From Dudresnaya verticillata (Eukaryota): 64,000 nt of DNA. The stretch's first letter is position 1; the number at the start of each line of letters is the position of its first letter. Below are positions 13,410 through 48,177 of the stretch, piece after piece. Below the pieces are notes generated by a model. It saw nothing but the letters and a program-made list of their open reading frames with translations. It was not told the origin of the DNA and did not search any database. Both the position numbers and the translations under genes were made by a program. The stretch covers positions 682,001 through 746,000 of the forward strand of contig OZ374564.1 of the NCBI GenBank assembly GCA_977862235.1, read 5' to 3'.

Positions 13410-13418
13410 TGTGCCACA

Positions 13419-13440
13419 CACCAGGGGGACAAATCAAGGC
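13419..13440 (+). repeat. Left terminal inverted repeat
   Basis: CACCAGGGGGACAAATCAAGGC, preceded by CA at 13417-13418. Confidence 0.92.
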
Positions 13441-13701
13441 CCCAAACTACATTTGGCCGGGGTCAAATCAGAGATGCCCTGTTCCGCGCGTCTCAAAATT
13501 AGGAACAGCCGCAGTAAAGGTGATTTGCGATATAATTATACAATTTATCAAATCAATTCACGGCTTGTGCGCAGCTCTAATTGTAGAGTCAGAACAACTG
13601 CATGTAGCATACCGCGCCGCACCCCGCAAGTTTGTAGTTTGTGCATCTCCAAATGTAGAAGTTCCCGTCCTTTCGCCATGACATTGCAGAACTCGGGGAT
13701 T

Positions 13702-14693
13702 TGTTGAGGACATGGTCGCTGGCGCCTCACGTCAGGGGTCAGGTACCCTAGATGGTACCCTGGCACGCTTTCACCAAACTTTCCGGAGACGACAGCCCTT
13801 TTTCCGGGCTTCCAAAATCACGGCGCATTTAGGCCTTTTGCAAAAGCAACGTGAAACGGGCTTCTGATTGGTTGTTACAAACCGCCTCCATGGTCTATAT
13901 GGCTTACAAGTGTTGTGCTGGAATTGGCGGTTATAACAGGAACGGCCAAGTGGAACGATCTGATTGGACCACATGAATGCACGTGGTATGGCATGGAATG
14001 GTACTGGTATGACGCGCACTGTACTCCACAAGTACATATGAACGTGCCATGCAATGTGCTGATGGCGTCTGAGTTGGTACTGCAGGGACTTGCGCTACGT
14101 GGAGCCTGGCTTGTGATATCAGCAGATGCAGTTGTCGTGCGGTCGACACGTTGGTTTACAGTTGCCACGTAGCTGTCGTGCGGCCGACACGTTGGTTTAC
14201 AGCTGCCACGTAGGCAAATCTGGGTGATTACGTGGTCAATGATCCAAGTTGGATATTCATGGACGGATTTCAGCTCGTAAGTGCGGCCACGTGGTGTGCA
14301 GTGTTGTCCGACAGCAGCCATGCGGGGACACTCGATACTTTCAAGTTCCCGCCCAAAGTTGGAGTACATATGAATGGCAGGAAATGCGGTCGCAAGAGGG
14401 ATTGCTGATGTCAGCAGTTAGCAACACTGGTGTGCAAGTTCCCGCCCATTTTGGTGGCGGATGTGAGTGTGCTGAGAGTATGATTTGGTAGATTTAATTG
14501 CTTTACTTTTTCCCGCCCATTTGATGATAGGGATTTTGGGCGTTTCTTTAATGATTTGTTTTGTTTGTGTTCACGCAGCAACTCATCCGAAAAGCTGATA
14601 TAAGCCATGTCGGATGGTCGACTGCAGTAAACGAAGTCAAGCGACTTCCATTTCTCATCTTGTTCAACTCCAACCTCTCCATATTCCTTTTCA
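13702..14693 (+). mobile_element. Copia solo LTR (992 bp) with TSD GGATT, nested in the giant transposon
   Basis: TGTTGAGG...CTTTTCA; GGATT at 13697-13701 and 14694-14698. Confidence 0.95.
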
Positions 14694-16732: not shown

Positions 16733-16785
16733 CCGGATGGACACAGGCATTCACCCTTGTAGGGTGAATCCCTGTGTCCATCCGG
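16733..16785. other. Hairpin with 25-bp arms, 1 mismatch, 3-nt loop
   Basis: CCGGATGGACACAGGCATTCACCCT-TGT-AGGGTGAATCCCTGTGTCCATCCGG. Confidence 0.85.
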
Positions 16786-16918
16786 TACGCTCTGACCGCC
16801 ATGACATCACACAGTAGCTGCTCCCATTATGGCGGGAAACACGATCTCAGAAAGGAAAGAATGTGAGTCCTACGGATGAAGGTGCCCGTCTTTCTGACCC
16901 AAAACATGAAAGGATAGC

Positions 16919-19185
16919 TTGGCTTCTACAACCACGAAAGGTTATCGGCATAGACATTTCCAATTGAGCTTAAGCTCACGTTCTGCAAAACGTTCAGTAT
17001 CATCTTCACTCATACTGGCAAGTCGCGCCAACCTTGGAAGCCTATATCTCACAACCGATATGTTGGCAGAAACTTCAAGGTCCGCCATGGTTGCATCAGC
17101 TGCTCAAGAGCAGAATGGGATCAGGGTAGGTTCTGGTACGATGAGCACGCAGGTACCAATCCAGAGCGGGGAGCCTGGCTTCGGAGCGAATTGCGCAGAA
17201 GACTTACGTGGTGGAGGTATGCGGGCACTGGTTCCAGACGTTAATGCCAACCTACAGGTTGCTTCTGTTGTCCGACGTGAGTTACGTGAAATCAAGGACT
17301 TTATCAATACCTCTCTAGGTTCGCTGAAGAAAGAAGTGAAAGAGGAAGTGCAGAAGATATCAACAATTTCTGATTGTCTGAAGGATGTCATGAGCAATGT
17401 TAACGTTTTGAATACGCAGCGCAGACATTCACGCAAGGATGGGTGCACGGGTAAGCGCAAGAAGCAGGAGCAGGAAGAAGAAGTTAAGATAGAGAAGATG
17501 GAACAAGTAACTGGTCTACCTCTCATTGCAGATCGTGTTCGACTGACGTGGACCATTTTACAAACACTGAATGCCAACCTTTCTTCAGATCTGAGTTCCG
17601 CTGTGGACCTTCCGTTTAACGCTTCCGATATCTCCGCTGCTAATGAATCTGGAAGAGAATGTGAATCAAGCGTTATTCCGACCTTTCCTGCGTACCTATT
17701 CTCGAGGCAGCGCATTGACACGAAGAAGAAGCACAAGTCGTCAATTGCCAGCAGGGCAAGGGAACTTTACTCCGAAATGATTATTCGTTTGGTTTGGTCT
17801 TCGAGGGCCGGAAATCTTTGTTCTTCGTCCCATATCCCGGTCGAGATAGCCCACCGCATACGTCAGTTGCTATGCCGGAATGGCTGTACGTCTTCTTTCT
17901 TCGGTCTGCAAGGAGGGCGACTGGAAATTCTAGACTTGGCTGTGACTCGATTGATCTTGTCGGTAAAAGCACAGACACAGTTCCCCTGGACATGACGGGT
18001 CGGCTGACGAGCGGCCTATCAAGGACGGAGTTGCAGCATGCTCGCATATTTGAGAAGAGAGCAATGAAAGGACAGGTTGATCAAGTGCTGAGGAGAGCTC
18101 ATGAAAGTAGGGAGGAAGGGCATAAGCGCGCTCGAGGAGATCCGCTACAGAATACTGTTTCTAAGAGTGCAGAGGCTAAGAAGTATTGGAATTTGGAGAA
18201 GACATTCACGGGTGGTATTGATCTTCTACGAAAACACACTGCAAGGGTCATCAACACTGGAAGAATGGCTGCCCGAAACGTCATTTTTAAGTCCTTCGGT
18301 TTCAACCTTGCATACCTTGAGGAGAACGAGGCAATCGTTTCAGATGAGTACGGAATTCAACTCGCCCCTCTTTCCTCGGAGGAAGAAGAGTTCTATACTT
18401 CCAAGATCAGTTTGGAAACTGTTATTGGTACAGCTTCTATACTAGAGGTAGGGGATGGGGAGACGGAAATTGAAAGCGTGGACACGACTAACGAAATCCA
18501 GTTCGGTAACCTTCAAAATTCCTTCCCCTCATTAACTATTAGTCTGTAGTATCAAGCTGTGTACCGAGAGAAAGGACGAGCAGGTCGGTTGTCGGGAACC
18601 GCTCCGGTAACAGAGCAAAAATGGACGCAATACGAGCAGGTATCTCTTCATGCAGTTGCACTTCGTGTCTTAATGGAGGCTTCGCGAGCAGAGGGTATGG
18701 CGAACGTTTTGCGGTCCACAAAGCTATCTCTGAGAGCAGTGCATGCTCTAGCGCTGACCTTTCGTGCCATCATTGCATCAGAACTTGGAAAGAATGTGAA
18801 CAGAATCGAAACGTTTCTCTTAGGATCAATAACCTTGCACACTGTTGCACGTAAGGATGAGAGTGGGGTAAGAAAGTCTCAAGATGGTACCGGCGATGGA
18901 AATCGTAGTGGTCGTTTGCGAGCACAGGACGAAGAGGACGAAGATGTTTTCCCCGGTCTGATGATCTTGGACAAGGACAAGATCGGATCCAGGTTGGCGA
19001 ATAGGTTTTCACGTTCAAAGGCAGAATACCATGATCATCTGGCAAAGGATAGAGTTGAAAAAGAGAGCCAAGACCGAGAAGAGACCTTCCATAACAGTTG
19101 CGCAAGGGACAGTCTTATCGCAAACTATGAGGAAGAGGGGATCCATATTCTGGAAGAAGACGAGGAGCTGGACCCATTCTTTTGA
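16919..19185 (+). pseudogene. Cargo gene 1, unknown ~700-aa protein with predicted coiled coil and acidic tail
   Basis: ORFs 16919-17995, 17794-18549 and 18559-19185 join via one frameshift (~17850) and one in-frame TAG (18547). Confidence 0.65.
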
Positions 19186-19438
19186 TCTTGTCACTCTCTC
19201 TGTCGGGAAAGTAGCAGCGCATTTTGTTTGAGTACATTATTGTTTTGCGTGGATACCTTGCGAAGCTTCTTAAAGTAATGATGTATGGGAAACAGAATTG
19301 CTTTGGGAAACAAAGTTGCTTTTCAATTTGTTGCATGCTCTGCACGGGAAATATGTCCATTGGAACTGCAGCTGCTGCAGTGGTGACAGTTTAATGCTTC
19401 AAAGCAACCACGAAATATATAAAGGAGATATCGTAGAT

Positions 19439-19498
19439 GCGTATCGACATGAAAACGATATGTATGTTGCGTATCGACATGAAAACGATATGTATGTT
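19439..19498 (+). repeat. 30-bp tandem duplication
   Basis: GCGTATCGACATGAAAACGATATGTATGTT x2. Confidence 0.9.
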
Positions 19499-20895: not shown

Positions 20896-23800
20896 TTAGT
20901 ATGAGTCGGTGTCGGAGTCCTGATCATTGTCATCGTCACTTTCTATCGTTACTGTACCCTCATGCTTACGTTGAATATCAGCAGGTGCAGCAGGTTTCGT
21001 CCTATCTCGAGGAACGTATCTGTTCAAGGGGAAAACGGGTGGAAGGTTCTCGTCATTGATCCGCCATGGAAAGTCGGGATCCTTGACTGACCACAGCGAG
21101 TCATGTAGTGTCGAACCGCTGCGTACACAATACGCATGTCCTCGAATGTTCACCGGGACGCCACGAACTTGGCACATATACAGATATCGACGATAGTTGG
21201 AATAGACGTCTTGACTGCTTGTGAGAGGATACGGCGAATAACCGCCACATCCGAAAGCCAGCTTGTTCTCCTCTCCACTAGCGCCTGCATGGCCGGTGTC
21301 CCCTCGAATGAGGAGGAGGCTGTACGGCGGAACAGTAACGAGCCTCGATGGCATGTGCCGAATCATCTGCCTCCTAGCCTCATCACTCAGAGTGTTCAAA
21401 ACCTTGTGCGAGCCCGGCCACATCCGTATCGCGAAAGGTTCGGCACCGGAGAACATAATCGTCAAATGGAGCATCTCTGGTGCGATTCCATACTTCTTCT
21501 CAGGCTTGTTCTCTCCAATCACACAGGGCATCCACCCTGGAGCTGGTATCATAAAGTCTGTGTGGCATCGTTGGGGAACAACGGCATCCGATGTGCAGAT
21601 CAATTGGCAGCCTCGCAACGGAATTCGCAACGGCTCTTCCCTATCCTGGAGTCCTGCATACTCCAGGTATAGCGCCAGGAAGAGCTCCAGCGCACTTGTT
21701 CTTGAATAATCCTTGGACCACGACCTTTCCTGAACTGTTATCCTCGGAAGAATCCGCCATTAGGGAATCGCAGAACATGTGCGCAGTAGATTGGAAGCGA
21801 AAGTTCTTCGCGGCCTCGTCCTTGTCCTTTCTCAGGACTTCTGCGATCTCCGTCGAAACCCTTGCAGTATCCTGCTCCGAGTTCGAAGTTATGATGTGCC
21901 ACCAGTTGTCGATATCATTCGGATCACGGGTGTTAGACTCCGAGAGCTGTTCTTCCAGCTTCGCAAGCATGTGTTTCATAACCGAGTCGACACATGCGGG
22001 TATGATGCCACTACCAGTTCGGGCCATGAAATGACGGTCGACGTAAAATCCATCTCTGTGAAGACACTCACGGAGGACGTTGAAGTGCGACTGCTGCCAG
22101 CGCTCGAAACGACTCGAATCCGACATGCTTGACTGCGGTTTATAACCGCACTGATAAGCCGATGAACTTGCTGTCCTGATGGAACGCCTAACCTCCTTCA
22201 CATCTTCCTCCCCCAGCACGATATTATGGGGCGCCTCCGCTGAAATTGCAGAAATGTCTTTGAGACGAAGTTCTTCTAGCATGCGAGCTCGCGGGAGGGC
22301 TGAGAGTTGTTCTTCAGTCATGGCATGGGGGTCTTGCCTGCAAGCCGAAATGGTATCCTTACGCGAGTAAAGAGAACTGTACTCATTCCAGACTGCTCGC
22401 AAGTGGTCCTTTGCGGCTCCCCTCCTTTCCCTCTGTGAAGCCTCCCTGTAACGAGAGAAGGGGACCTTGCGGTGGCTTGCTCGGATGCTGTAAACCATCC
22501 TTCCCTCCTCATCCTGCTTCTGGAATTCTGCAGGACCTGAACCGTTGTTCTCAATCGTTCCAATCTTCGGAAACCGCGAATCTTCTCGACGCTGATCTGG
22601 TGCCCGGTTGCGTCCCGCTTTCGAAACCTGCAGGTAGACATTCTTTGGGGCCACGGGCTCCACCACGTCTTCTGAGGTCTCCACACCGCTCGGCATATTC
22701 ACAGAAGGCTCTGGATGGGAGGGGTTCTCTGCTCTCTCAACCGGTACTCCAGACTTAGCAGGGGTACTACCGGACCCAGCGCTCGAGCGCATGCGCTTCG
22801 GATTTTCTGCAGGAGATGAGGAAAGAGAGCTGCGGCGGCCGGTACGTCTCCTGATAGGGCTGTCCTTTCTCCAACCTGATTGATTGGAAGAATTCTGGAT
22901 TTCGGACAGCTCACTGTCGTCCTTTCCGCGAGTAAGGACAATGTCCGTATCTTTCCTCACACGGCGCCTGGCACCACGAGCGGCGCGGCTTGCGAGGCGC
23001 GTGGCGTGCTCAGGAGTATCCTGTTCATTTACGGCACGCTCAGGAGGGGTGCTTGATGGCGTACCCCGGGGTAAGGACGGCCGTCCTTTCGCGGCACGCT
23101 CAGGAGGGGTGCTTGATGGCGTACCCCGTCCTTTCGCGGCACGCTCAGGAGGAGTGCTTGACGGCGTACTCCGTCCTTTCGCCGCGCGCTCAGGAGTGGT
23201 GCTCGAGTGCGTGCCCTTTCCTTTCGCGGCCGCGCCGGAAGGGCCTCTTGACTCTGTATCCTGTCCTTTCGCGGCACGCTTAGGAGGGGCGCTTGAGTTG
23301 GTATTCTTGTCATTCGCGGTAGGATATGAAGGGCTACGTAAGGCTTCTGAAAACCCTGTGTTAGGATGAAACGTTTCCTTGCGCAACTTCCCCAGAACGG
23401 AAGTTATGTATGCCATCTGTTCATTGAAGACTTCAAACTCGTCGTAAAGTGATGTGTGCTCCAAGGGCCATGACATTGCAATGGAAGATGCTCTGAAACG
23501 TTGCTCATCAACTTCAAAATGTTGAACAGCAAGACGAGATGAAAGAGCATACTCCAGACCGATGAAAGGATCTGATAGCAGATCGCTGGTGCCGTTCTGG
23601 TCAGGACGTGATCGGGGACTCTCGATTCTTACGTCGAACCATAAGCTGCTGAAAGACGTAGCATCAGGCCATGCCATTCGGAAGCTGCGTTCAGCAGCAT
23701 CCATAACTTTGGCTACAACGCTGATGAGGCGACCAATCTTGTCGGCGCTCCAAAGGTTGTCACCTTGTATACCAAACTTTTCTATGTAAATAGACCGGAA

Positions 23801-24844
23801 ATCTGCTGCACGCATGACGCAGAGTTTTCTCTCGTAATCGCTGAGCGACTGGAAGGCATGATCCGCAAGCACCGAAACGACGTAAGCGTTGCAACCTCTT
23901 GTTTTGAGAATTTCCTTCACATGGGCCATCAACTTTGGGGAGCCATCGGCGATGAGGGAAATGGAAACTGTGAGCCAGGCAAGGCGTTCCTGCATGGGCA
24001 TGTCCTTGAACATGTATTCATTTCCATTTCCGTCGATGCCCAAGTAGACCTCTTCTGCCGCGAACTCTTCCAAGATACCGACCTTGTCATCTTCATGAAG
24101 AAAGGACAAGGTTGCTGTGCTCGTATCGCTAGTCCTGTTGCTGATGTCTTCCAATAGCTTCAGAACTTTCGTGGACAAAGTCCCGTACGGCTTGTGATCC
24201 TCGTGCAGAAAGCGTTCCAATCCCCCAAGTATTTGAACTACGGCCCTAGCCTTTCTTTTCTCTGGAAGTCTCGCCAGTGAAGATTGAAGAAGTTCTTCGT
24301 CGGTGGGGATACCAGCATCGTCGGCATACAAATGATCTTCGTGCGTAGCTGACACGGGAGGATCGATAAACGTCACACGTCGACCTTGTCCCGTCCAACG
24401 AGACCCTGCCGCACGTGCGCTTCCGGAAGCAGCGGGTCGCGACACAGGGTCAGAGTCCTGTGCATCCGCCACTGCAGTTTCAAGGTCGACGGACGATGAC
24501 GCTCCACCCTTTGCAGGGAAAACCGGGGGGCGGTCCGCACTGATGAGCGGATGGTCTTCTCCAGCGACGGCTTGAAGACCTTCTTCAACCACTTCGCCAT
24601 GCGGCGAGCTAGTCACCAGCGTCTTTCTGCTGGTCTGCGGCTCTTCATCTCCTATCTCCTTGAGATTAATCGGCTTTCGAGCGAGTCTTCTCTTGACGCG
24701 AGGACTTTTGGAGCTCTTCTTGATCGCTAGAAGCCTGTCTTCACCGCGCTTCATCCTCTCCTCGTATTCCAGACCCTCCTTGGCCGGGTCATCCGACGGC
24801 TCTTCGTTGACTGGACTGATGCCTAGCCTTCGCTTCTTCACCAT
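20896..24844 (-). pseudogene. Cargo gene 2, ~1300-aa protein with C-terminal PhyH-like 2OG-Fe(II) dioxygenase domain (one frameshift ~21700)
   Basis: LHRDGFYVD (PhyH-type N-terminal motif) in ORF 21641-24844; QRCHTDF (HxD), MWPGSH and LLLIRGDTGHAGAS (distal H) in ORF 20896-21630. Confidence 0.72.
23030..23290 (-). repeat. Coding tandem repeat, ~45-bp unit (GRGTPSSTPPERAAK) x ~5
   Basis: Unit CCTTTCGCGGCACGCTCAGGAGGGGTGCTTGATGGCGTACCCCGT is visible on the + strand. Confidence 0.88.
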
Positions 24845-25728
24845 CCTTCCAAAACTTCTCGCGACGCGATGTGCCCTCCGGCAGATATGCGCACTCGAGG
24901 GCTGTGGCGCGCCGGCCGTGCAGAAAGCCTTGTTCGCGGAACGCTAGAGCGTGCGTCGGTTGATGGTATTAAAATACCGGGTCCCTGGCGTCAACACGTA
25001 CAGCAGGCCTGTCGAGCACCAGCGCAGGGAGGTCGGTGCTGCGGTAGTGATTCTACCGAGGCGAGTAGGGGAGTGGACAGGGAAGAAGGATGACGGTGAG
25101 CGCCGAACGGAGCAGGGAGGAGAAGATGTGGGTGGCGGCGCGGTGAATGTGTGTCGGGCACCTCGGTAGTGCGGTGACCGTATAGTCCTGGCCTGAAATA
25201 GGCCTTCAGAACCGTGAAAATACCAGCTTCTGTACGATGATGAACGCGCGTTCTCAACGGCAACCAGAGTTCCGGCGGAAAAGATGCGCTGCGGGCGGTT
25301 CCTCGACACGCACATGGCGCTTCTGGTTCCGCCCAAAGAATGTTTTTTTTGAGCCTTTCTTGGACTCTGACCTTCAGATGCGAAAGAGAATGCCTAAACA
25401 GTGGCCCTACAGCGCGCATGAAAGGTCTAATATGCTGCAAATGTATTGGACGTTGAGACTGTAATGTAAAAGATCCCAGTTTTCATTCATGGAGCGGACA
25501 CATGAAGGTGTTTATGTAAGCACCCACTTCGTGCGACATGGCCTGGTACGCGCACGGGTGGGCTGGGCCATTTTGACACATCCTTGCACAGACAATGATC
25601 AGTGTTGGGTATCCAGAAGTAAACCATGCTCACTCAAATGTAAGAAGATGGGAAAGGACAGCAATCCAATAACAATGGTCCTCTCTCAAGAGGAAAACAT
25701 GGCAGTTTGTGATGAAATGAATGTTCTC

Positions 25729-25789
25729 AGTTCGGAGAAGCGGAATCAGTACTGATTCGGAATCAGTACTGATTCCGCTTTTCCGAACT
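25729..25789. other. Near-perfect 61-bp palindrome containing two AATCAGTACTGATT palindromes
   Basis: AGTTCGGAGAAGCGGAATCAGTACTGATTCGGAATCAGTACTGATTCCGCTTTTCCGAACT. Confidence 0.85.
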
Positions 25790-25869
25790 TCGCTGAACAT
25801 GATCCGCGGATGCGCTTTCCGCTTTCCGCGGAATGCGCAGATTTCTCTAACAAGATGACAACCTGTACA

Positions 25870-26110
25870 GATGAAAGGACGACATTCACTGATGAAAGGA
25901 CGACATTCACTGATGAAAGGACGACATTCGCTGATGAAAGGACAATATTCAGTGATCACTGAAACGACGAAATTTAGTAATGAAAGGACGGCCTTCAGTA
26001 CTGAAACGATGAAACGACGAAATTCAATGATGAAAGGACGGCCCCTAGTGCTGAAACGACATCGTTTTGATGATTAAATGCCTTCCTCAAGTGAGGAAAG
26101 GACGATTTTC
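25870..26110 (+). repeat. 21-bp tandem repeat GATGAAAGGACGACATTCACT (4 clear copies plus degenerate ones)
   Basis: Directly visible, no spacers. Confidence 0.9.
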
Positions 26111-26293
26111 AATGCAGAAAAATTTCCGTGCTTGCACTAGGTACTAAGAAGGCAAGGACAAGGTCGAGAAGAAATGCAATTGAACTTCTTGTAAACATTT
26201 ACATGCGAAGTCTGCTAGACTTCAGCAGCAAGACGTAGAGAACGCCGTCCTATACATTGTAACTTTCCACAAATGACATTACGCCTTACCTTG

Positions 26294-29200: not shown

Positions 29201-29918
29201 GTCGTGGGATTGCCCTTTCCATCAAAGCCTTCAGTTGTATCATTTGGCTTTCTTCCGCTCCGTTCGATGAAGCGTCGGCCGTTTGGGAGAGTTCCAGACT
29301 TTTGCCTATTTCCGCAAGGATGCCAAGTATACCACCATCAATATGGGCAGGACCCATTCTGAACTTGCCGTTCACGCAAATGCGATTGCGAACTTCATTT
29401 CGCTCGTGTAGGATCTGGTTGCAGTGCTCGACGAGGCTCTTAATTGACTCAACGAACCGTCGGACGAACAAAGCCTGCCATTCCTTTTTGCGATTTTCCG
29501 ACCTTTCCACCATGCACCTTGTTGACGTTGCGAGCAGCACGGCAATCTTCTCAAGACTGCCGCAATCGTGGAATTTGTGGCACTTGAACAACTCATACAC
29601 AATCGCGAAGCCGTCTTCGCATTCGACTAACCGCATGTAGAGATCAAACGCCCGCTGCATTTCTTCGCCAACCATGGAATGCGCTGTATCGAAGTAGATG
29701 CTCTTGGTGGTACGCGACGCTGTATGAAAACCCAGATTCACTTCTTTACCCTCGACAACAGCCTTGATAGGGCCCACTTCGCTTGCAAACAGATCGTATA
29801 GCTTGGACTTGTTATCCAACTTGACTTGAAAGGATCGGAAATTCCGAGCATGAAGAAACTCGCGCAACATCCTTATAACCACGCGCTTCATTGCGTTTCC
29901 ATGCTGCGTGCGCTTCAT
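26294..29918 (-). pseudogene. Cargo gene 3, ~1200-aa paralogue of gene 2 with a catalytically degenerate PhyH-like domain
   Basis: ORFs 28536-29918 and 26916-28475 are in one frame (single TAA); frameshift ~27020 into 26294-27016. LQGDGFVID, FPHTKF, VWPGSH, IPPYSMMVIRGDLTVM align with gene 2. Confidence 0.72.
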
Positions 29919-36100: not shown

Positions 36101-37486
36101 ACAAGATGCTTTGTTTCAAGGATATATGACGAAAAGGAGGAAAGGGTGACAATTGCGCAGTGCTTTGCAAGCTGTAAAGTAGACTGGGTGCGTCTGAAAC
36201 GTGCATCGCCTCAACAACGCTTCCGCACCGTCATCAAGAAGAACCTTACAGACGTTTTCAAGAAAATTCAAGCTTTCGATAACATGCACTTGATACAAGG
36301 AATCTTGAAGCAAATCCTTTTGAACGAGAGGGGTCCTGAAAGGCTACCGTTGCTTACTTGGCAAAAACTTTGGGAGCTCATACCTTCTGGTTCTCGAACA
36401 GCCATCAAAAGATTGGGTTCGAGCCCTGATACTACTATCAGGGAACGTCTTCAGGCTGAAATATTAGGTGTCATGTGTTACAACCTTCGCGTCACTAAGA
36501 TGTATCTCCCAAGTTTTCAAATGGGCGAGATATTCTACCTTGTCCGGCACAACTCCGGGTCTATCGCAAAACAGATAGTAGTGGATACAGTCTGCTGCAT
36601 TCTCGAAGGTTTCCCCACAAAAGCAAACATACAAAAGGGGGAGGATTACACAGCAGCCGAACAGACTATCCGCTGGTGTCAAGGAAAGCTGCGCTCTTCC
36701 AGGAGTTCTGCCGTTTCTACAAGTACGAGTTTCTCACAGCAAATGGAATATGGTGAGTCACTTGAAACCTCTGCGACAGCTTGCCTACGAGTTTTGGTAT
36801 TAACCTCATCACGTCAGGAGACAGTTCTCGTCAGAGAATCGTTTTCAAGAGCCAGAGTGATGGCTCATGACCCCCAGCAGAATGAAAACTTTTCCGCACC
36901 GATTCAGTTATACACGGTTACGAGCTGTCGAGAAAGGAATGTTGCCGACGCAAATGACAAAGGGAATACATTCGAGGGAATTCATGTCATCCTGTGCAGC
37001 ATTGAAGAAATTCATGAGCTTCAACGCCTGATGAACCGCGTAAGCAAGAGAAAGAGAGTATGTGTTCCGAGCTTCCGTTCCATAATATTGGTGAACGGGG
37101 ATTACGTTCCCGTCCCAGCCTTCATTCACCTACTCACATTCGCTTCTAGCATCACTGTAGCATTCACACTCTTTGGGATGCATGATGATTCGGCTGAAGT
37201 TGAGGGTGATGTTGAATTTTGGAGAGGAAAGGTTGCAGCAGCGGACCTCTTGATTATGGAAATGATGTGGAATGTTAAAAGCCTCGATATCCGAAGGCTC
37301 GATGCGCGGTTTACCGCCGCAGATATATCAGCAACGGCGGGGCCGTGCGGGCCCGACGATACCATTCCTTCACCGGGCCAAGGGGAACAAGGAAATCTCC
37401 ACAGCGGCCGCACTTCATTGGCCAGGACAAGAGCTATTGCACGCAAGGAGATCGGAACTGCCGTGAGGAGGCGGCTTTTCCACTAA
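33122..37486 (+). pseudogene. Cargo gene 4, ~1450-aa protein with one in-frame TGA (33617); C-terminus resembles a degenerate SF1 (UPF1/SEN1-like) helicase
   Basis: ORFs 33077-33619 and 33791-37486 are in one frame with no other stop. Ordered remnants IFYLVRHNSGSIAK, VLVLTSSRQETV, VILCS, FRSIILVNGD, FTLFG echo SF1 motifs I, Ia, Ic, II, III without catalytic residues. Confidence 0.55.
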
Positions 37487-37739
37487 CAGAGAGAGGGCCA
37501 CAGTGCTGCGTTCCATTTATTGAAACGGTATTGGCCGAAACATTTTCTGTGGACAGTAAAAGAAGGAAGCATATTGATCAATGGCTGCGGTGTCTCAACA
37601 GTTCACCAACCATTACGGAGATTGAGGAGGTATTAAGTCAGTTTACAACTCAATACAGTTCTTTTCTTTGTTGAAAAGTCGATTTCATGTCGCTTTCTTG
37701 TAGACATGGAACCTTCCCCGGGATGCATTCGTAAGCGAT

Positions 37740-39460
37740 ACCCTTTCCTATAATTCGCATCCATGGACCTGTCCTTTCCTCTCGGATAAGAAAAATAGTA
37801 AAGGACAGAAAAATAGGAAAGGACAACGTCCTTTCAATTGCATGACAGTTATGCTGCTTTGAAAGGGACCAAGGGGCATGATTGAATGGAAAGTCGATAC
37901 TGCTTGGTGTGAAAGGACATAGTCCTTGCTGCTTCGAAAGGACATGATGAGATTGCAAGCCCTTTTTTCCTAATCCACGGATTTTTCTGTCCTTTCCTAT
38001 TTTTCTAATTCATGTGTCGGAAATTATGAAAGGACAGGATAAAGGAAGGGACTTCGTGCTTTCAATTGCTGTCTTACTTTTCCAAGGATCAGAAAATAGG
38101 AAAGGACAGAAAATGACATCGTCCTTTCCATTGCTTCATAGTCATCCTGCGGGAAAAGACATAGTCCTTGTTGCTTCGAAACCAAGTGATAGGACTTGCG
38201 AGTCATTTTTCTCTAATCCAAGAATTTTTCCGTCCTTTTCTATTTTTCTTCCCCATGGATCAGAAAAAAGAAAGGACCGGAAAAAGGAAAGGACGTCGTA
38301 CTTTCAATGGCATGGGCGTTATGCTGCCTGTCTTTCTTATCCATGGCTCAATATTGGCAAGGACAGAAAATTGAAAATGGCCTCGTCCTTTCCGTTGCAT
38401 CATAGTTATTCTGTTGGGAGAACAAATAGTCCTTGCAACTTCGAAACGACATGATAGGACTTGCAAGTCCTTTTTTTCTAATCCAAGAATTTTTCTGTCC
38501 TTTCCTATTTTTCTTCTCCATGGATCGGAAACAAGGAAAGGACAGGAAAAAGGAAAGGACGTCATGCTTTCAATTGTGCATAAGCGTTATGCTGCCTATC
38601 TTCCCTATTCAAGGAATCAAAAATAGGAAAGGACAGAAAGTTGAAAGCTACCTCGTCCTTTCCGTTGCATCATAGTTATGCTGCTGGGAGAACACATAGT
38701 CCTTGCAACTTCGAAACGACATGATAGTACTTGCAAGTCCTTTTTTTCTAATCCAAGAATTTTTCTGTCCTTTCCTATTTTTCTTCTCCATGGATCCGAA
38801 ACGTGGAAAGGACAGGAAAAAGGAAAGGACGTCATGCTTTCAATTGTGCATGAGCGTTATGCTGCCTATCTTCCTTATTCAAGGAATCAAAAATAGGAAA
38901 GGACAGAAAGTTGAAAGGGACCTCGTCCTTTCCATTGCATCATACTTATGCGGCTGGGAAACGACATAGTCCTTGCAACTTCGAAACGACATGAGAGGAC
39001 TTGCAAGTCCCTTTTTCTAATCCAAGAAGTTTTCTGTCCTTTCCTATTTTTCTTCTCCATGGATCGGAAAAAAGAAAGGACCGGAAAAAGGAAAGGATGT
39101 CGTGCTTTCAATTGCATGAGCGTCAGGCTGCCCATTTTTCGAATCTATGGATCGATAAATAGGAAAGGACGCTGTCCTTTCAACTGTTGAGAGTTTTGCT
39201 GCCTATGTTTCTTATCCATATGGCTGCAGCCATGAGAAAATAGGAAAGGGTAGAAAACAGGAAAGGACGTCGACCTTTCCATTGCATCGGAGTTTCGCTG
39301 CTTGTAAAGAACATAATCCTTGCCGCTTCGAAAGGACATGATGGACTTGCAAGTCCTGTTTTCATTATCCATGAATCGCAAAATAGGAAATGTCCGAAAA
39401 ATAGGAAAGACCGTCGTACTTTCAATTGCATGAGAGTTATGCTGCTTGGAAAAGACACAA
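37740..39460. repeat. Tandem array of ~240-270-bp units (~6 copies) rich in GGAAAGGAC/GTCCTTTCC
   Basis: Marker AGTCCTTG(C/T)..CTTCGAAA recurs at ~37921, 38163, 38428, 38698, 38968 and, degenerate, ~39316. Confidence 0.92.
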
Positions 39461-39865
39461 TGCACTTGCATCTCCATGCTGCTTGAAAATGACATGATGG
39501 ATATAACTTGTAACTCTATCATGTTGGTACTGCATACAGAAGCCTATGTAACACAGAATTCTGTATTTTTCAGTCGTCCGCATGCGGCAAGCCATGACTG
39601 CAATACCGATCGTCCTTTCATCGATGGTTGGTCGATCGTCCTTTCTTCGAGGGAAGGACGGACGAAAGAAGTCTTCGGCTTAATTATATCCTAAGACAAT
39701 AACCGGGGAAACACTTTCGAATATTACAACGAATTTGCTTCTGTTAATGATTCAGCATGACCTTTATTTTCATGTGCACATCTACAATCACAGCTCTGGA
39801 TACATTTACCCAGCATATATATGCATATATATATGTGCAATCGATTTGGCGATGATCATCGCCTA

Positions 39866-42800
39866 TCATGCATTTCGAGGCGGGTATCCTTTCCAGCGCT
39901 CCAAAATGAAAAATTGTGCCTGCAGAATATGACGGTGTCCACGTTTGCTGGCCTGACAGGAAGCTGAACATCTGTGAATGACACCAACTCGCCTACAATA
40001 CTGATTCCAGAAAAGTAATGACGGCCCGTTCTCCGGGATAGAAACTTCATAAATCTCATCATGGCATAGAATCTTACTTTCCGATACCGGTGAGTTTCCG
40101 GGCGTTACATTATCTTCTGTGTGGAGTGCTTGTACACAAGGTAGCACTAACGCTCCTGTTTTCCCCTTGTATGAAAAAAATGTCAACACGTACCAGAAGG
40201 ATACTGCTTCTTCATATAGTTGTGATTCATCGCTATTTGCAGGAATATCTTCGCCCTGTAGAACGACAGGAAAGGCGGGTTGCGTTTGTCCTTTCAACCT
40301 TGCTTCCAGAACTTGGACAACATCTCCCTGATGTACATCAAATGAATTCATGGGTGGAAGAGCTCCATTTACCATGCCGGATTTCCAGACAAGCCTAGCC
40401 CGGGTACCGAAGAGCTTATGTTCTTTTCGTTTCTCCTCCGAGATGGAAAAATAATTCAACAGTATGTTTGTTCCGCTCTCGCTCATTCTCAACTCAATAT
40501 CTTCCGGCCTTCCAAAACCTTCATCATTTGTCATTGCGCCATCGGAACAATGCCATGTGGAATGCGCAGTGAACTTCCAAAGGTCATCTACTTCCCAACT
40601 GCTTCTGTCATCTTTCATTGATCCGGTTGTGGACATTACTGTCCTACCTTCGCGTGCTAACCTTTCATCAACCGTTCCTTGGGGTCCAAGAGCTCTGCGG
40701 ACGAACTCAAAATCAGCGTCCTCCACTCTTCCTTTCCTATCTATTATTGCTTCCCTCCCGCAAAGGAGACGTAGCAGACCTCTTACGGTATCCTTTCTGG
40801 GCTCATTGCCTTGCTCTCTATATTCTTGCACGAGCATGTTCATTCGCCCCTGCCAGTCATTCATAGCTGCTGCCGTGACAGCATAGTCCAAATGCGAATC
40901 CCTATGATTTGACCTTGTCACGGATCTTTTCAACCCTTGGTGGGCTCGTTCAAACGCAAGCTCAGCCACTCTACGAATGCTTCCAATCATTGGCAGCAAT
41001 ACCATCCCAAGTTCGTACAACCTATGCGCGTTTGGATGATCAAACCTCTCTCGTGCAAGTAAGGTTTCCGACCACTCGCGTTGAGACCGGGCCTTCCTCT
41101 TCTTCTGTTCAGAGCTTCTTCCGGACCTTGCCGCTTGGTAGTCTGCAAAATCGTTTGCAGAAAATGTGCAGAGGCGACGAGCAAGGTCCAAATGCGAGAT
41201 GATTGTCTTCTGTAGAGAAGCTACGTAGTTGTATCCTTCATTTCGGTTGAATTCAACTGACATTTCCTTTCCATCAACTCTAGCTCTCGGCCAATACCAC
41301 AATCGAGAGACTAGAACTGAGAAAGACTGGACCAATGCAATTGCAAGTATGCATTTTCTGGAAAGACCTGATTCTTCTAGAGAGGTTATACCACTTTCTC
41401 CACTCCTGGCCATATCAGTCTCCGGAAACCTTAGTATATCGGAATGTGACAATACGCTTGATCCACTACAATCCCTGCAAATGAGCTTCAGGGCAAACGG
41501 TGCTACATACAGGAGGACATAGAGTTCACTCAACTTCATAGAATGAAGACTTATGTGAGAGCTCTTCTCCGGGTCCTAGATTCTGTTCTGGAATGGAAGT
41601 CGTAATTCCTTCATGATTGAGATGCAGTACACATCAAACTTTCTTCGTTGAGGTCGGGATAGCAATACTATGATGCAGTTGAGACAATCCTTGGCATGTC
41701 CTGTTAATAGATGGTCAGGGGCGATGAGCATTCCCTGGTATGGATCAATCTGACCAGGAACAACGGGATTACCATACTCAGTTTTTGGAATTCGGTCCCG
41801 ATTGCGCAAGAACGCTTCATCCAGCTGATGAATCAGACAAGAACCCTCCTTTCCCACTGCACTTATTCCCAGTTCTTGCCTCTTCCGGTTATCAGTGCAA
41901 TAGTTCCTGACTGAAACATGCCTCCTGTGGTACCTTCTCGCGTGCTCCATCCCTCCATGGAGACTGGTTTGAAGGTAACGAGCATTCACCGGGGACACAC
42001 CTCCTCCCTCCTTTTCCGAAGATATATCCTGTCGAACGTACTTACAGAGATGACAACAAGCATCTGCATTGTGCCCACGGATGTCTAGGACCTGGTTCGC
42101 TGCAGGAGTATCAGCAAGGATACCAACGAGGTCGAGAAATATTTTAACCCTCTCCCCGTCAGCATCGTAGTCCTCGAAGCCTTCTGTCATCCCCTTCACT
42201 AAGTCCTCCTCCAATCTTATTAAGACCTCGTCGACATTAACGCCAGGTGGCACCAAACTCAGAATGAGAACAGAGGAACTGCTGGACCTTTCCCTCGGGG
42301 CAGGTTAAGACATACAATATAGATTCCCTCCCCGCTGGCTTGCTTCCCTTCAGTCATCCTAAAACCGTCCCAGTACAGAAGGAATCTATATACAACGTAC
42401 TTGCAGCCATCCTTCAGGTTTCCGATACTTGATCCAACTCGTTCCAGTTGCTCATCTGAGCTACCAGGAACCTGTGGTAGGACAATTATCTTTCGAATGC
42501 CACGTACACGGTTCAATACATGGGCATCACTAACATTCTCTCCTTGATCGCTTGAGTACAGAGACCTGAACATGTGACATAAGTCACCCATATCCCGCAG
42601 TTCATTTCCTTGCGAATTGCACTTCGGAGCAACCCATAACATGAATCTGGAAAGGTCGTCATCTCGAGGAAAGAAGCGATGCACAATAACGATAATACTG
42701 TTTCCATTCTCATATTGTAACGGAGAGATAAGCGTAAAAGTATCCCCTGGACATTTTAACCTCTCTGCCATCTGCTGACAGAAGACGTCTTCTGTACGTA

Positions 42801-44343
42801 CGTTATCAGTCGGATTGTAACCCTGGATAAGTATACCGGCGATGCATTTCCCTAGTTGGGAAATCGCAGTATGAATATATAATTCATATGAAGATTCACG
42901 GCCATGTCCGTCATGGCGTGCACAGAAAGCAACAAACTTTCCAAGCACTGCGGTGCCGGGACTAAGGTTCGTCCTTTCACCCGATAGTTGACTGAAAGTG
43001 GCACGTAGTTCGTCTGGAAGGTCTCTGGAACCAAAACAAGAAACTTGAACCACATCACCAAGTTTGGCACGGGTGTTTGGAACATTACAATGTCCTGTAA
43101 TATTACCGCTTTCTTCCTCGTCCACAGAGATGCACTGAAATCCTCCGTAGAATCTTTTCCTTTGCGCCACCAGGGGCCAGTCATCAACAAATTCCCAATC
43201 CCTAATAGCAGGCCGCACAATGCCATTAGCTTCGGTTTCAAGTCCAGCCTTGCTTTCTAACGAGGTTGCCTTTATCGCCCGGTGCACAGGACCGCAGGAA
43301 ATATCCATCCTTGCATACTCACTCACCGGAATCATACGGACCGCAGTTGTCGCAGACCCTTCCGTGGATAGTGCATTGACGCCAGGCTTGTTAATGTCAA
43401 CTTCATGGATCTCATCTGTAGCTCGTGCGATTAAACTAGCCTTCAGTGCCCTCATATAATCTCTCTTAATTGTCCGATACGACGGGAAAACAAAAGGAAG
43501 TTTTTGGCCAGCGTAGGTAGTGCCCCTGTTCACCACTGCGGGAGCAAGTGACGTGTCTAATGGAACTATCGAGGCTTCCATAGTTGACTTCTTCCAGGAG
43601 GATAGACCTTGCATACGATTTACAAGATTAATAATCCTTAGATGTTCATCGTACTGTTCTCGAGACAATCGAACACTTCCCGATACCATCAGGATAGGGA
43701 GGATAACTTGCCAGTGGTTTAAAGACACTTGCGCGGAATTTTTGTAGTCGCCCTCATCTCCATCATCATTAGTCAGGTCAATGTTTTCGTCGACATTGTC
43801 AAGAGCATCATATGAAATATCCTCGTCGTATATATCCAATCTATCCGTCATTTCACCTTCTTCACATGGGTACTCTTGCTTTTCTATCTCACTGTTGCTT
43901 TCCATACCCTGACTTTCTGGGCGCTCGTCCTCCACAGTGCGTCCAGAAAAGGCATCAGCATTGCGACCAGATGATTCAGTTGAGTCAACCGCAGTTATCT
44001 CTTCTCTTGAGATTCGTGTCGGGAGAGGTGCATTTTCGACTCCTATCCTTTCCTGTGCATGTGTCCAGATACTGCAACGTCCACTCATCCGATTATCAAG
44101 CATGTCGTCTGGTTGAACCGGTTTCTCCCTCTCGTCATTTTCGTTGGGGCAATTGCCTTCTGGTTCCAAATGAGGCATGCAGAAGGGCACCTCTTGAGAG
44201 GTCGGTCGCTTATCGAGAGGGGATTCAACTGCAACCCCTGAGGGTGGCAGCGCTGCATGCTCATGGACTACCTTGCTCAAACCAAATGCCTTATCCACTC
44301 GGCGCTTCTTCCACCCTCGAGATCTCGACCTTGTCCAGTCCAT
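39866..44343 (-). pseudogene. CACTA/EnSpm-type (Transposase_21/TnpD-like) DDE transposase, ~1490 codons, one frameshift (~42290) and one TAG (41576)
   Basis: Ordered motifs LYWDGF, CLNLP, LADTPAA..GHNADACCHLC, APDHLLTG, AFERAH are characteristic of CMC-superfamily transposases. Confidence 0.85.
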
Positions 44344-45099
44344 CCTTTCACTCAGTCGACTGATGACTATATTACCTCACTTTTGCCATTCTCCAGGTAA
44401 TGAAACTTTCATGCGTTACGATAACAACCGTGATCTGATTGTTCAGTTCAGCGAAATTCCAATAGCTCCCGGTTGCGGACTGAAACGTTATCCCTACCAA
44501 GGTGAATCAGTGAGGGATCCCTAGATACATTGATATAATTACTAGCACTAGCACTGATACTGAAATATCGACTCACTTTCTAGAAAGTACAGCTATACAG
44601 GAGAGAACGGCAGCCTGACGTTCACAATCATTCGATGTGAAGCGGTTTGAGAAGTGGTTTACCGACTGCTTGCTGCCATCTGGTCGGTAACCAATCAGTG
44701 AGGAGAACTCACTTCTGGTGACTGCGAAGGTCTGGCCTCTTACATTTCTGATAGCGCAATCAGAATGCAAATTACAAGCCTCACACCTCTGTCTGTGATC
44801 CCTGCTAATCCCTTGTTCATTCATCACTTTGAACGACCAGTTAATGCAGAATGCGTTTATGTATGCCTACGACGACCGCTTTGAGTAGAATCTCATTATC
44901 TTGCCAGGGAACTGTGGCACCTCTCATGGCGTTCCACAGCCATAAATTCTTGATTTTTATGGAGATGAGCGACCAGGTAGGCAACAAGGTCCATTCTGTG
45001 CGATGAGTCCAGGCTGACAGAAAAGATTGAGCCAAAGCACTTCGAAAAGCAGTTCAGTGGGTACTGCTACAATTATTGCGGTTAACTGCAATAATCGAA

Positions 45100-45640
45100 A
45101 GGGCTTGTAAGCCTTTCATATGCAGGTTCATATGAATAGACTTGCCTTTCATAGGCCCTGTCGTATAAATAGACCTGTCCTTTCATAGCCCCTGTCGTAT
45201 TAAGGGACTACCCAGACTTTCGCACGAAAGGACCATTTGGCGACAATGTCCTTTCGTACGGACCAGCTGTCCTTTCGTATGAAAGGATCAGGTGTCCTTT
45301 CATATGAAAGGTGTCCTTTCGAGTGAAATGACCACTCATCCTTTCGTGGTGATTTTTGGTGAAAGGATGATCATCCGAATGGACACCTCACACAAAAGTG
45401 TGTGTGAGATGTCCATTCATCCTTTCGTGGTGGTTGTCGGTGAAAGGATGAATGGACATCTCACACACACTTTTGTCACACTTTTGTGTGAGATGTCCAT
45501 TCATCCTTTCACCACTTTTCCTTTGATGTAAAATATGAAAGGACGCTCGTATGGATTAAATTATGCAGTTCATGAAAAGGCACGTCCTTTCTTACGGCTC
45601 GCGTGCACGCGTGTACGCGAGCCGTACGAAAGGACGAGCC
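45100..45640. repeat. GAAAGG-rich spacer with nested inverted repeats upstream of the transposase
   Basis: Perfect 29-bp arms at 45439-45467 and 45485-45513; second hairpin 45583-45636; numerous CCTTTC/GAAAGG copies. Confidence 0.88.
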
Positions 45641-45887
45641 ATGTTAGCTCCCTCAGTCCATGGATAAGTTCTGGCAGCATTGTACCTCGAGCTACGTGAT
45701 TTTCGCGGAACGTCTGTCTACAGAATGACTTATTCTGAAATTATCCCGTGTGCATTTACGAGCCGCTAATGTAGCGCTAATGAATGATTCGTTGCATGCA
45801 TGTTACATTCCTACTGAGAGGGCTGAATCCAACGAATTCGTTGCTTATAAAAGTAGACATTCAGGCTCATCTGTAAATCCCAGTTTG

Positions 45888-47738
45888 TTACCCGGTACAA
45901 CTCTTTCCGCCCCGCCTAAATGCATCGCCATGGGTGCAAAGCAATCTCTGTATCTCGGAAGCTGCTTTGCTTCCATTGAAGGAAGTAATTGGAATGGAAC
46001 ACTGAAGTGCCCCAAGAACATCTTCAGCTCCAGTATATGGTGACCCTACATGGAGTCTTTGGTCAGGCAGTTTCTCCCATTCCAGCCGAAACTCAAATTG
46101 GTCTGTATACGCCGTTGTGAGAGGTGTCTTGGATTCTAGTGAACGTCCTTGCGTAGTCTTGGACGAAATAGACCTGTCTATGAAGTCCCGCAACCAGGAA
46201 GATGGCTCTTCCCGTACACGAAAGCGCTCCTCAAAAATCCCTTCCACTTCGTTCCAACAACAACGAGGTCGATGGAGGACTGGAACGACATCATTGGGAT
46301 TAGTTTGAAGATATCTGTACCCCGTTCCCAGCCCAACGCATGTTTCCCCGCTGTTTTGGCTTTCGGGTGACTTGTCTTCGCGCTCAATACAGTTAAATGT
46401 GCTCCCGACTACCACAACGGTATCCACGGAAGATGATGCGCTTGTCTGTACTTGTAACATGACTTCCTGTGAGACGTTGGGCTCCATTTCCAGTTCATCA
46501 CACAAGTCCGCAAAAGTCGGGAACACTATACAGAATTTTGATCGATCTCCCAATGTCAAGAATACGGCTTTGAACGTGCTTGGGCGAATGTCAGCCCGTC
46601 CCGATAGACGCGACCTTGCACCTTGCGCTATGTCAATAAAGTCCTGCATTGTGCAATATGTCTTAGTTGTACGTAGCATCTTGCATGTGACAGCTGTGCT
46701 ATCACAAACTGACTTAGTGTTTGTGCTCTTCTTAGCTACCGACCGAAGGACGGAAAGGACGAAAGTCTGTACGAACCTCTTCAGTCTGTGAATATCCCGA
46801 GCTCTGTAACTTTGTGTAGAACTTGGCCCATGCATTGTCATTAGTCCGGACACGATGCTTTGCAGTCCTTGCACCTGTTTTTCCAAGCAAACAACTTTCT
46901 CGGATATTGACAGCACAGCTCCCTGAAGTTCTGCTCGACCTTGCCTACAAACATCCGGTGCGCACTCGGTATCAAGAATAAGTTCGTCGCTGCTCTCCAT
47001 ACAATCGTCTTTTGAACCCCACATACAATATCGCCAGGCCGCTACCATTCCTCCATGAATTCGGGGACCATGCCGGAGTTGGTTACGCCCGAAGAAGGAA
47101 ATGCCATGGTAAGTGTAGTTGGAAAGGTCATCCGGGGATACACTGTGAGGTGAAGATGTGTACGTCAACGACATCGTCTTTCCGCAATTCTCCGCACCCA
47201 CTAGTGCAGCCCACCAAGTACGTTTATCGTCCTTTCGTGATCTTGTATTTCCATCAACGCCATGTCTAGTTGAATTTCCTGGTTCCCAATCCCGGTCATC
47301 ATTCGCTGCGATAACGTCCGCGTTATCTAGCACCCAACATACTTCTATAAATGAACCTGGGCTTGGAACTTTGTCTTCCCTCTGCCGTGTCGACCTTTTC
47401 CGCGTATGAAATGAGACTGCCTGCGCGCCACTCGATACATCGTTGCATGCAAGGACAGCTGTTCCGCAAGGTCGGGGAGACACAGCATGGTTCCCATCCT
47501 TGTTCCGAGCGTCGCCGTCCAGTTGACGGCTGGCGTCACCCGCCCGGCCACTCTCGTCTGAAGTTGAGTTATTTTCTTCTTCTTGGTTGGAGAAGCGATC
47601 TGCGTTCAATGATCCTTCCATAGATTGAACCTGAAAGGATGAAGCATCGGCGCAAAGGTCTCTGCACGGATCCGAATTCAGCATCCTCTCACGCACTAAA
47701 CCGGCCGGCGTGAGCATCCCGGGATATTCAGGCATCAT
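45888..47738 (-). CDS. Cargo gene 5, intact 616-aa protein with possible Tudor/Agenet-like barrel and coiled coil
   Basis: Uninterrupted ORF. PGSFIEVCW...KRTWWAALV...SLTY resembles a Tudor-like aromatic barrel; ISEKVVCLEKQVQGLQSIV heptads. Confidence 0.6.
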   Translation of the reverse strand: MMPEYPGMLTPAGLVRERMLNSDPCRDLCADASSFQVQSMEGSLNADRFSNQEEENNSTSDESGRAGDASRQLDGDARNKDGNHAVSPRPCGTAVLACNDVSSGAQAVSFHTRKRSTRQREDKVPSPGSFIEVCWVLDNADVIAANDDRDWEPGNSTRHGVDGNTRSRKDDKRTWWAALVGAENCGKTMSLTYTSSPHSVSPDDLSNYTYHGISFFGRNQLRHGPRIHGGMVAAWRYCMWGSKDDCMESSDELILDTECAPDVCRQGRAELQGAVLSISEKVVCLEKQVQGLQSIVSGLMTMHGPSSTQSYRARDIHRLKRFVQTFVLSVLRSVAKKSTNTKSVCDSTAVTCKMLRTTKTYCTMQDFIDIAQGARSRLSGRADIRPSTFKAVFLTLGDRSKFCIVFPTFADLCDELEMEPNVSQEVMLQVQTSASSSVDTVVVVGSTFNCIEREDKSPESQNSGETCVGLGTGYRYLQTNPNDVVPVLHRPRCCWNEVEGIFEERFRVREEPSSWLRDFIDRSISSKTTQGRSLESKTPLTTAYTDQFEFRLEWEKLPDQRLHVGSPYTGAEDVLGALQCSIPITSFNGSKAASEIQRLLCTHGDAFRRGGKSCTG

Positions 47739-48153
47739 GAGGAGCTGTGGATGTTCCAGGGCTGGGAAGAGTGATGCAGACGGGGTTCGCCGGGAGACGT
47801 TAGAGTATATCTCCTGATCGACTGCAAGGATGATTGCGCAGGATAACTACAGAAGAAGAGCTTTCCATATCATGCTCGCTGAGCCTGAAGTTCGATTGAG
47901 TAGAGAATGAGCCTCCGTGAGATGATTGACCTTAACAAAGGTTTGAGATATACATGCATAACAGCGGTTGGTCAATGTTGCAGAGATGTGCAACCCAGAG
48001 ATTACACATCGGCCGTAAGCGGTAGCCATTTCGGCGCAGTAGTGTCATTACAGACACCAAATCTCTGATATTAGTGATTGTAAAACTCTAAAAATACATA
48101 TCAGTCGTGAAACTGTAATATCAGAACTCTGAAACTGTAAAAAATGTAAATCA

Positions 48154-48175
48154 GCCTTGATTTGTCCCCCCGGTG
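48154..48175 (-). repeat. Right terminal inverted repeat
   Basis: GCCTTGATTTGTCCCCCCGGTG followed by CA at 48176-48177. Confidence 0.92.
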
Positions 48176-48177
48176 CA

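Follow-up and report, generated by a model that had tools for sequence, protein, structure and literature searches.

We describe a large DNA transposon in Dudresnaya verticillata. It lies in a 64,000-bp stretch of contig OZ374564.1 (assembly GCA_977862235.1, positions 682,001 to 746,000 of the forward strand), hereafter the window, in which it occupies positions 13419 to 48175. Between its ends are one transposase gene, five accessory genes, and an element-wide population of the heptamer GAAAGGA. The ends are 22-bp terminal inverted repeats (TIRs) that begin with CACC and match at 21 of 22 positions, the left at 13419-13440 on the plus strand and the right at 48154-48175 on the minus strand; the inverted match stops at 22 bp. 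The terminal word occurs twice in the window, both times at the element ends. A CA dinucleotide stands on both outer sides (13417-13418 and 48176-48177), although at this single site the chance of a 2-bp match alone is 1/16. An original prediction made from the DNA alone had named these repeats and this duplication, and both are confirmed. The boundaries are independently backed by the heptamer: 126 of its 131 copies in the window fall between the TIRs, the first at 13668 and the last at 47633. We regard 13419-48175 as almost certainly one TIR-bounded cut-and-paste transposon.

The flanks of the element belong to a single interrupted Copia gene on the plus strand (left half 12716-13418, right half 48176-48573). 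An intact Copia copy elsewhere in the window provides the reference: 12716-13409 aligns to its positions 53596-52903 at 82% identity, 48179-48573 aligns to 52906-52511 at 88%, and the two alignments abut at 52903/52906. The prediction of two halves of one Copia integrase therefore stands as far as the gene is concerned, but the split falls inside an SH3-like domain (Pfam SH3_retrovirus, residues 733-804 of the intact open reading frame), C-terminal to the integrase core. Compared with the one intact copy, the rejoined site also has a surplus of 14 bases, so that the split is not perfectly clean. The surplus consists of a 9-bp near-palindrome of the form TG...CA (13410-13418) followed by 5 bases (48178-48182) that repeat 13405-13409 with one mismatch; words from it are absent from the rest of the window. 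An earlier element that made a 5-bp duplication may have left this scar, the present element having then inserted into its end.

A solo Copia long terminal repeat (LTR) of 992 bp is nested 283 bp inside the left end (13702-14693, plus strand). It has its own 5-bp GGATT duplication and differs at 17-22 positions from two other LTRs in the window. The element proper thus measures 33,760 of the 34,757 bp; the predicted arrival of a block of about 34 kb as one insertion holds on the strength of the TIRs, the duplication, and the split Copia gene, except that the solo LTR came separately. The same-strand LTRs at 13702 and 48574 were considered as boundaries of the block and ruled out, since the former has a duplication of its own.

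The transposase gene occupies 39866-44376 on the minus strand (first Met at 44343). It is a single broken gene in three pieces (44376-42259, 42304-41576, and 41575-39866): the reading frame shifts near 42300-42262, and a TAG codon interrupts it at 41576-41578. Relatives of 1,200-1,560 residues are collinear with it across both breaks. We read the protein through the breaks with X and used its last 812 residues as query, which returned 750 relatives at E<=0.001 from 1.84 billion representatives. None of the 30 relatives that were looked up has a more specific name than "hypothetical protein". The motifs are WDGF, D65, C84-x2-C87, H198-x4-H203, and E448/E452 (P0001 numbering), and the first D is that of WDGF, upstream of the frame change. 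Across 33 rows, comprising 32 related loci and the window, the residues of the last four motifs are kept, in the order given, in 31, 33, 33, 30, 26, and 32 rows: CxxC in all 33, D65 in 31, and E452 in 32.

Structure prediction places this protein beside RAG1. The model reaches a predicted local distance difference test score (pLDDT) of 87 from an alignment of 89 sequences, and its top five matches among 48,161 chains are ProtoRAG and RAG1 (Z 11.8-10.8, root-mean-square deviation 3.8-5.1, 334-339 residues). ProtoRAG 6b40 leads with Z 11.8, a deviation of 4.6, and 337 aligned residues, RAG1 chains score Z 10.8-11.5, and the next match is the P element at Z 6.5. Foldseek gives RAG a probability of 0.93-0.96, but with E 0.16-0.33. 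Pfam matched Transposase_21 at E 0.019 for the middle piece, under the cut-off of that family; PF18759 (Plavaka) gave no match for P0001 and weak matches for three out of 15 sequences from the alignment, with E 0.052 at best. A word-based protein search with the N-terminal half found no match at threshold, a weak negative given that such a search needs exact shared words, and a sequencing-run search for 39800-48175 listed no run. The motifs together with the predicted fold support a CMCT-clade DDE transposase with a RAG1/Transib-like catalytic core, and they uphold the CMC/EnSpm-type call of the original prediction.

Two further features of the protein concern its C-terminus and its relatives. 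Residues 568-808 match BAH domains, namely ORC1 (Z 6.4), TNRC18 (6.2), MET1 (5.9), and DNMT1, AIPP3, and EBS (5.5), and Foldseek places Ash1L first at E 0.075. These Z scores are below the trust level of 8, so that a BAH-like C-terminal domain (39869-40630) is a lead from the model; a literature search for a BAH domain, a transposase, and CACTA together found none. The extreme C-terminus carries a conserved G(Y/F)PPR-like motif, with which 66 of the 153 proteins compared also end. The comparison with relatives drew on 58 loci related by their transposase (handles such as L003), the longest of which are partial (8-13.5 kb). An unrooted tree of 397 columns, built from the window and the 32 loci that cover at least 330 of 500 positions, places the window transposase between loci with homologues of accessory genes A or J (support 98) and four methylase-type loci (support 100), and no lineage name is derivable from it.

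The original prediction also spoke of at least five extra large genes, a count that is reached by joining broken frames into the genes A, B, C-D-E, F-G, and H-I-J, where each letter denotes one frame. Gene A (45888-47846, minus strand) is an open frame of 616 residues from its first Met at 47738, and gene B (33620-37486, plus strand) an open frame of 1,288 codons, 1,220 of them from the first Met at 33824. Gene H-I-J (16910-19185, plus strand, first Met 17060) is broken by a frame change (overlap 17719-17995) and an in-frame TAG at 18547-18549. Gene F-G (20896-24943, minus strand, first Met 24844) has a frame change near 21700 and contains a 45-bp coding repeat with the heptamer at 23081-23296. 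Gene C-D-E (26294-29930, minus strand, first Met 29918) has an in-frame TAA at 28536-28538 and, near 26950, has lost about 250 internal bp and changed frame; its C and D pieces appear to belong to one gene. Four of the six element genes therefore carry lesions, meaning that either the copy has decayed or part of it is wrongly assembled. An intron or programmed shift common to F-G and C-D-E was ruled out, as the breaks differ and about 250 bp are missing in C-D-E.

F-G and C-D-E share a C-terminal domain. In F-G it is a PhyH-like 2-oxoglutarate (2OG)-Fe(II) oxygenase domain in which the HxD..H..R residues are present (frame G). In the Atlas, the first hits of this domain score 0.93 and 25 of 30 hits are PhyH; it also matches, at E 6e-5, the C-terminus of a gene in locus L046 that resembles PAG3, an accessory gene of red algal elements discussed below. 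The domain in C-D-E is paralogous to it (29% over 215 residues, E 2e-27) and is without HxD and the distal His, such that its iron ligands are lost. Upstream of F (24900-25380) and of C (30400-30650), tblastx aligns 26 codons at 35% with no blastn match, a weak hint in the DNA that both genes and their promoters might stem from one duplication.

Beyond these domains, the accessory genes resist classification. Pfam and NCBIfam recognise no family in any of the frames A to J, and matches to Hanta_Gc_C, NS3, and MAG0770 were discarded as chance level. Gene B has no usable Atlas match (recognition 2031), its last 395 residues have no PDB sequence match at E<=10, and its single-sequence model has a pLDDT of 33.7, too low for a fold search. 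Inspection by eye raised the idea, from its motifs, of a degenerate SF1 helicase domain at the end of B; searches gave this no support, and we do not claim it. Word-based searches with F residues 1-560 and, among longer proteins, with the G/E alignment found no match at threshold, again weak negatives owing to the exact shared words they need. In viral contigs, neither relatives of F nor an exact TIR match was found, and an Rfam search of the element returned no match.

The most distinctive feature of the element is the heptamer itself. The window contains 131 copies of GAAAGGA where 9.3 +/- 3.4 are expected, and none of 100 shuffles reaches that number. Besides the 126 copies between the TIRs there are 5 in the 29,244 bp of flanks, and none lies in the nested LTR; the density is 3.73 per kb in the element vs 0.17 per kb in the flanks, a difference of about 22-fold. 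In the non-coding element DNA taken alone it is the top heptamer, with 90 copies in 13,462 bp and in 7 of 8 segments, and the wider consensus is GAAAGGA(C/T). We consider it probable that GAAAGGA is a site for an element-encoded protein, a prediction that gains from its excess within genes. With the motif picked on non-coding DNA, we shuffled 19,428 bp of coding DNA synonymously, keeping each protein and its codon use and leaving out the repeat in F: 28 copies were observed vs 7.6 +/- 2.5 expected, a count reached in 0 of 1,000 shuffles. The excess is found in core genes (transposase 8 vs 2.2, A 3 vs 0.6) and in cargo genes (B 4 vs 1.1, C 4 vs 0.8).

A functionless motif, spread from a tandem repeat by slippage and gene conversion, with purine-rich codons (Glu-Arg, Lys-Gly) accounting for the remainder, could explain why 31 copies sit in one array and 5 in the coding repeat of F. 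The coding excess survives a shuffle that preserves protein and codon use without the F repeat, the same word family remains the most over-represented even when the arrays are set aside, and the sequences flanking the motif vary among copies. A neutral origin is made less likely by the excess that core and cargo genes share, and we judge it very improbable.

The non-coding copies are concentrated beside genes. A 21-bp tandem array of the GAAAGGAC motif (25842-26124) lies upstream of F-G and adjoins a 61-bp hairpin (25729-25789), and a cluster of 7 GAAAGGA (31527-31744) lies upstream of C-D-E. Between B and the transposase, a gap of 2,379 bp contains 31 copies and includes an array of about 270-bp units (37772-39460, 3.8 copies) with direct and inverted motif copies, and between A and the transposase, motif-rich repeats with long perfect hairpins (45111-45640) hold 15. 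H-I-J, F-G, and the transposase gene have near-perfect hairpins with arms of 25-35 bp a short way upstream (16733-16785, 25729-25789, 45392-45513, and 45579-45640).

This arrangement bears on the main rival to a self-recognition role: that the motif serves the transposition machinery, as a site for the transposase or for a TnpA-like helper (A or H-I-J) that compacts a long element and joins its ends, with the oxygenase genes as unrelated passengers. TnpA of maize Spm binds repeated motifs in both orientations, and GAAAGGA often stands in inverted pairs and hairpins. Transposases themselves are reported to activate cognate copies (10.64898/2026.08.24.746577) and long elements to transpose poorly (PMC6431247), so that extra sites could help. 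The ends of the element are nevertheless motif-poor (the left 283 bp contain one copy and the right 329 bp none); relatives with A-like and J-like genes (L001, L003, L035, and L038) show no element-wide motif; and dense clusters stand just upstream of both oxygenase genes. We regard a role in transposition as a rather doubtful explanation and continue to favour binding by the product of F-G or C-D-E.

The related loci show how the element may have been assembled. Homologues of gene A occur in 11 of the 58 loci by tblastn, and a profile of 12 open reading frames from the related loci matches A at E 1e-32, the homology being to its C-terminal half; in those loci the gene is located upstream of the transposase and in the opposite orientation, whereas A and the transposase share a strand in the window element. 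Homologues of J occur in 4 of the 58 loci, also by tblastn, beside the transposase. Locus L003 aligns with H-I-J across the I/J stop, and in L005 the H-I-J homologue is downstream of the transposase and convergent with it, as in the window element. Within 10 kb, L003 combines J-like, A-like, and transposase genes and starts with a matching terminal word; its second end was not found. A PF01555 methylase gene accompanies the related transposase in three loci (L010, L039, and L046; 3 of 19 proteins scanned), two of which, L010 and L046, additionally carry a PAG3-like gene. Just upstream of that gene in L046 (7480-7680) is a tandem array of 60-bp palindromic units, each including a word that resembles the start of the window TIR. 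Inward-facing words of the form CAC(C/T)(A)GGGG lie downstream of the transposase in other loci (L007:7911, L007:6153, L017:4256, L022:6114, L022:5306, and L058:2088) and are candidate right ends of these relatives.

GAAAGGA occurs at 0.19 per kb in the 58 loci. In seven of the longest, the three top non-coding heptamers of each show a mostly local arrangement, and in genes they are at most weakly over-represented (best cases 3 vs 0.7 and 5 vs 1.7; 6 of 200 shuffles).

These relatives raise a second alternative, a composite in which, only in the present lineage or copy, a core of about 10-14 kb received one or more separate mobile blocks bringing B and the oxygenase genes, so that the 34-kb unit as such has rarely or never moved. 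Relatives with A and J measure about 10 kb where an end is visible (L003), PAG genes move between transposon families (bioRxiv 10.1101/2025.02.11.637652), fixed nested insertions are frequent in giant elements (PMC12477816), and the element already holds a nested LTR. That LTR is free of the motif, and among 635 internal inverted pairs no member of the longest 25 resembles the termini of an inner element. The motif excess is common to core and cargo genes, which would need a long joint history, and we judge a composite improbable.

The overall reading, which we favour with modest confidence, is a CMCT transposon with five accessory genes in which the motif marks the element for binding by its own protein against silencing. 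The RAG1/Transib-like transposase, to judge from its predicted fold, would pair the two CAC ends, excise the block, and paste it with a 2-bp duplication; with its transposase broken, this copy cannot make a whole enzyme and would need another copy, that is, mobilisation in trans. Related loci suggest that a core of about 10 kb (transposase, A, and H-I-J) may have grown by gaining B and by taking up a 2OG-oxygenase gene that was later duplicated. An element-encoded protein, most likely the product of F-G or C-D-E through its unassigned N-terminal part, would bind GAAAGGA(C/T), by analogy with VANDAL/VANC and with a proposal for PAG3, and the oxygenase domain would alter a DNA or histone mark at the motif sites. 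Selection for more sites is proposed to have yielded the arrays and the motif excess inside genes. Taken by itself, anti-silencing as the purpose of the motif is an analogy whose prospects we place slightly below even. A fuller version is tentative and rather unlikely: a private 7-bp address throughout the DNA and even in the genes, served by a motif-binding 2OG oxygenase, its catalytically dead paralogue, and a transposase tail that is a BAH-like histone reader, would constitute an anti-silencing system independent of VANDAL/VANC and could make very large cut-and-paste elements viable.

Several observations, in addition to the surplus bases at the Copia site, count against this reading. The evidence for movement as a 34-kb unit is one insertion. 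In the Atlas hit of the G domain, 150-157 of 256 features are shared, fewer than the 170 that are usual for hits within one family, and sequence searches of Pfam, NCBIfam, and PDB assign the domain no family. PhyH-like enzymes mostly act on small molecules, so that a DNA or histone substrate is hypothetical. Searches recognised no DNA-binding domain in the accessory genes; the F and C N-termini align neither with each other nor with those of the PAG3-like genes in L046 and L010 (probability 0.2-0.3%, from a shallow profile of two sequences). The latter N-termini are called ParB-like from a DGxHR motif, a label that no search confirmed. Finally, GAAAGGA occurs in genes as well, unlike the binding of VANC in non-coding regions.

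Other repeats lie elsewhere in the window. A Copia element at 49904-57010 on the minus strand has an open gag-pol frame of 1,454 codons (50890-55254) and LTRs that are 99% alike, one of them about 115 bp short. Further LTRs of the same family lie at 7875-8948, with four 41-bp units vs two elsewhere, and at 48574-49565. The latter directly terminates the right half of the host Copia gene without a target duplication; it is 98% like the young LTRs, and its adjoining internal part is 88% alike. A GC-rich repeat family (55-62% GC) is present in several pieces in 1-12713 and 57008-64000 (for example 9428-11426 vs 59647-61645, 73%), and a Pfam search of its frames at 635-1801 and 1802-3037 found no family. 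The CpG observed/expected ratio is 0.92 in the element and 1.16 in the flanks; for TpA it is 0.64 and 0.74.

The element offers a sharp test of self-recognition, with one short candidate motif far denser than in the flanks and two candidate enzymes, one with intact iron ligands and one without. Its size is about twice that of the published EnSpm/Plavaka elements compared here, and a motif excess within protein-coding genes is an uncommon trace of selection that acts on the DNA sequence itself. Size, twin oxygenase genes, and above all the motif that runs through coding DNA recommend it for studies of how transposons recognise themselves.

How does the element compare with known systems? The suggestion that the family may be undescribed holds in part: giant multi-gene En/Spm and Plavaka elements have been published from Chondrus and Bostrychia, and the window element differs from them in its size, gene set, and element-wide motif. 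A closer match may exist in the supplements of the Bostrychia preprint, in Repbase, or in Dfam. According to that preprint, the giant Plavaka of Bostrychia moritziana (EnSpm superfamily) measure 17.4-19.1 kb and carry accessory genes PAG1-3, the authors link the full PAG cassette to florideophyte red algae, and self-binding is proposed for PAG3 (bioRxiv 10.1101/2025.02.11.637652). Since related loci follow this layout, the host of the window element is likely a red alga. Both systems are large multi-gene EnSpm-type elements with a PhyH-like 2OG-oxygenase gene, and the inverted-repeat arrays beside PAG3 have counterparts in the window at 25842-26124, 31527-31744, and the hairpin 25729-25789. 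Loci L010, L039, and L046, with transposase and methylase, follow the Bostrychia layout, as do L010 and L046 with their PAG3-like gene. In contrast to what is described for Bostrychia, the window element is 33.8 kb long, has five accessory genes rather than three, includes two oxygenase paralogues of which one is without iron ligands, and bears its motif element-wide rather than in a local array. Unlike PAG3, F and C show no detectable ParB-like N-terminus with the shallow two-sequence profile. A gene of the PAG2 type (N6-adenine methylase plus SET) was sought in six frames of the window with a methylase profile of four open reading frames, with no match at E<=0.05, and Pfam found no methylase family in 15 element frames.

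The Chondrus crispus En/Spm families, 16-20 kb with 4-5 open reading frames (Kojima et al. 2013, as cited in PMC6431247), are likewise CACTA-type elements of a red alga with several extra frames; compared by size and frame count only, the window element is about 1.7-2 times longer. The CMCT clade, which includes PlavakaA/B, ESTA, EnSpm, and Transib, is characterised by a second D, CxxC, H(3-4)H, a last E, CA..TG termini, and a 2-5-bp duplication (PMC12730594), and the window element shares CxxC, H(4)H, CACC..GGTG termini, and a 2-bp CA duplication. Those termini differ from the TGT..ACA of fungal PlavakaA and the CATCA..TGATG of PlavakaB in the same source. Dioxygenase cargo in CMCT elements has been proposed to counter silencing (PMC12730594); the window oxygenase is PhyH-like by Atlas, and no search called it TET/JBP.

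The functional analogy is with Arabidopsis VANDAL elements, whose VANC proteins bind 8-9-bp motifs in their own non-coding tandem repeats and undo silencing (PMC5735166). The window element would work in a like manner, having an accessory gene with internal tandem repeats and a short family-specific motif that has built up in tandem repeats of non-coding DNA. VANDAL differs in its Mutator-type transposase, against the CMCT type here, and the window motif, for which binding is a prediction, is in excess in coding DNA too. Giant KDZ elements reach a similar scale, with 30.3 kb in Ectocarpus and 31.7 kb in Chlamydomonas, in a study whose largest EnSpm is 15.2 kb (PMC12477816). They resemble the window element in size, accessory genes, nested insertions, and a pseudogenised transposase, and they belong to a different transposase superfamily.

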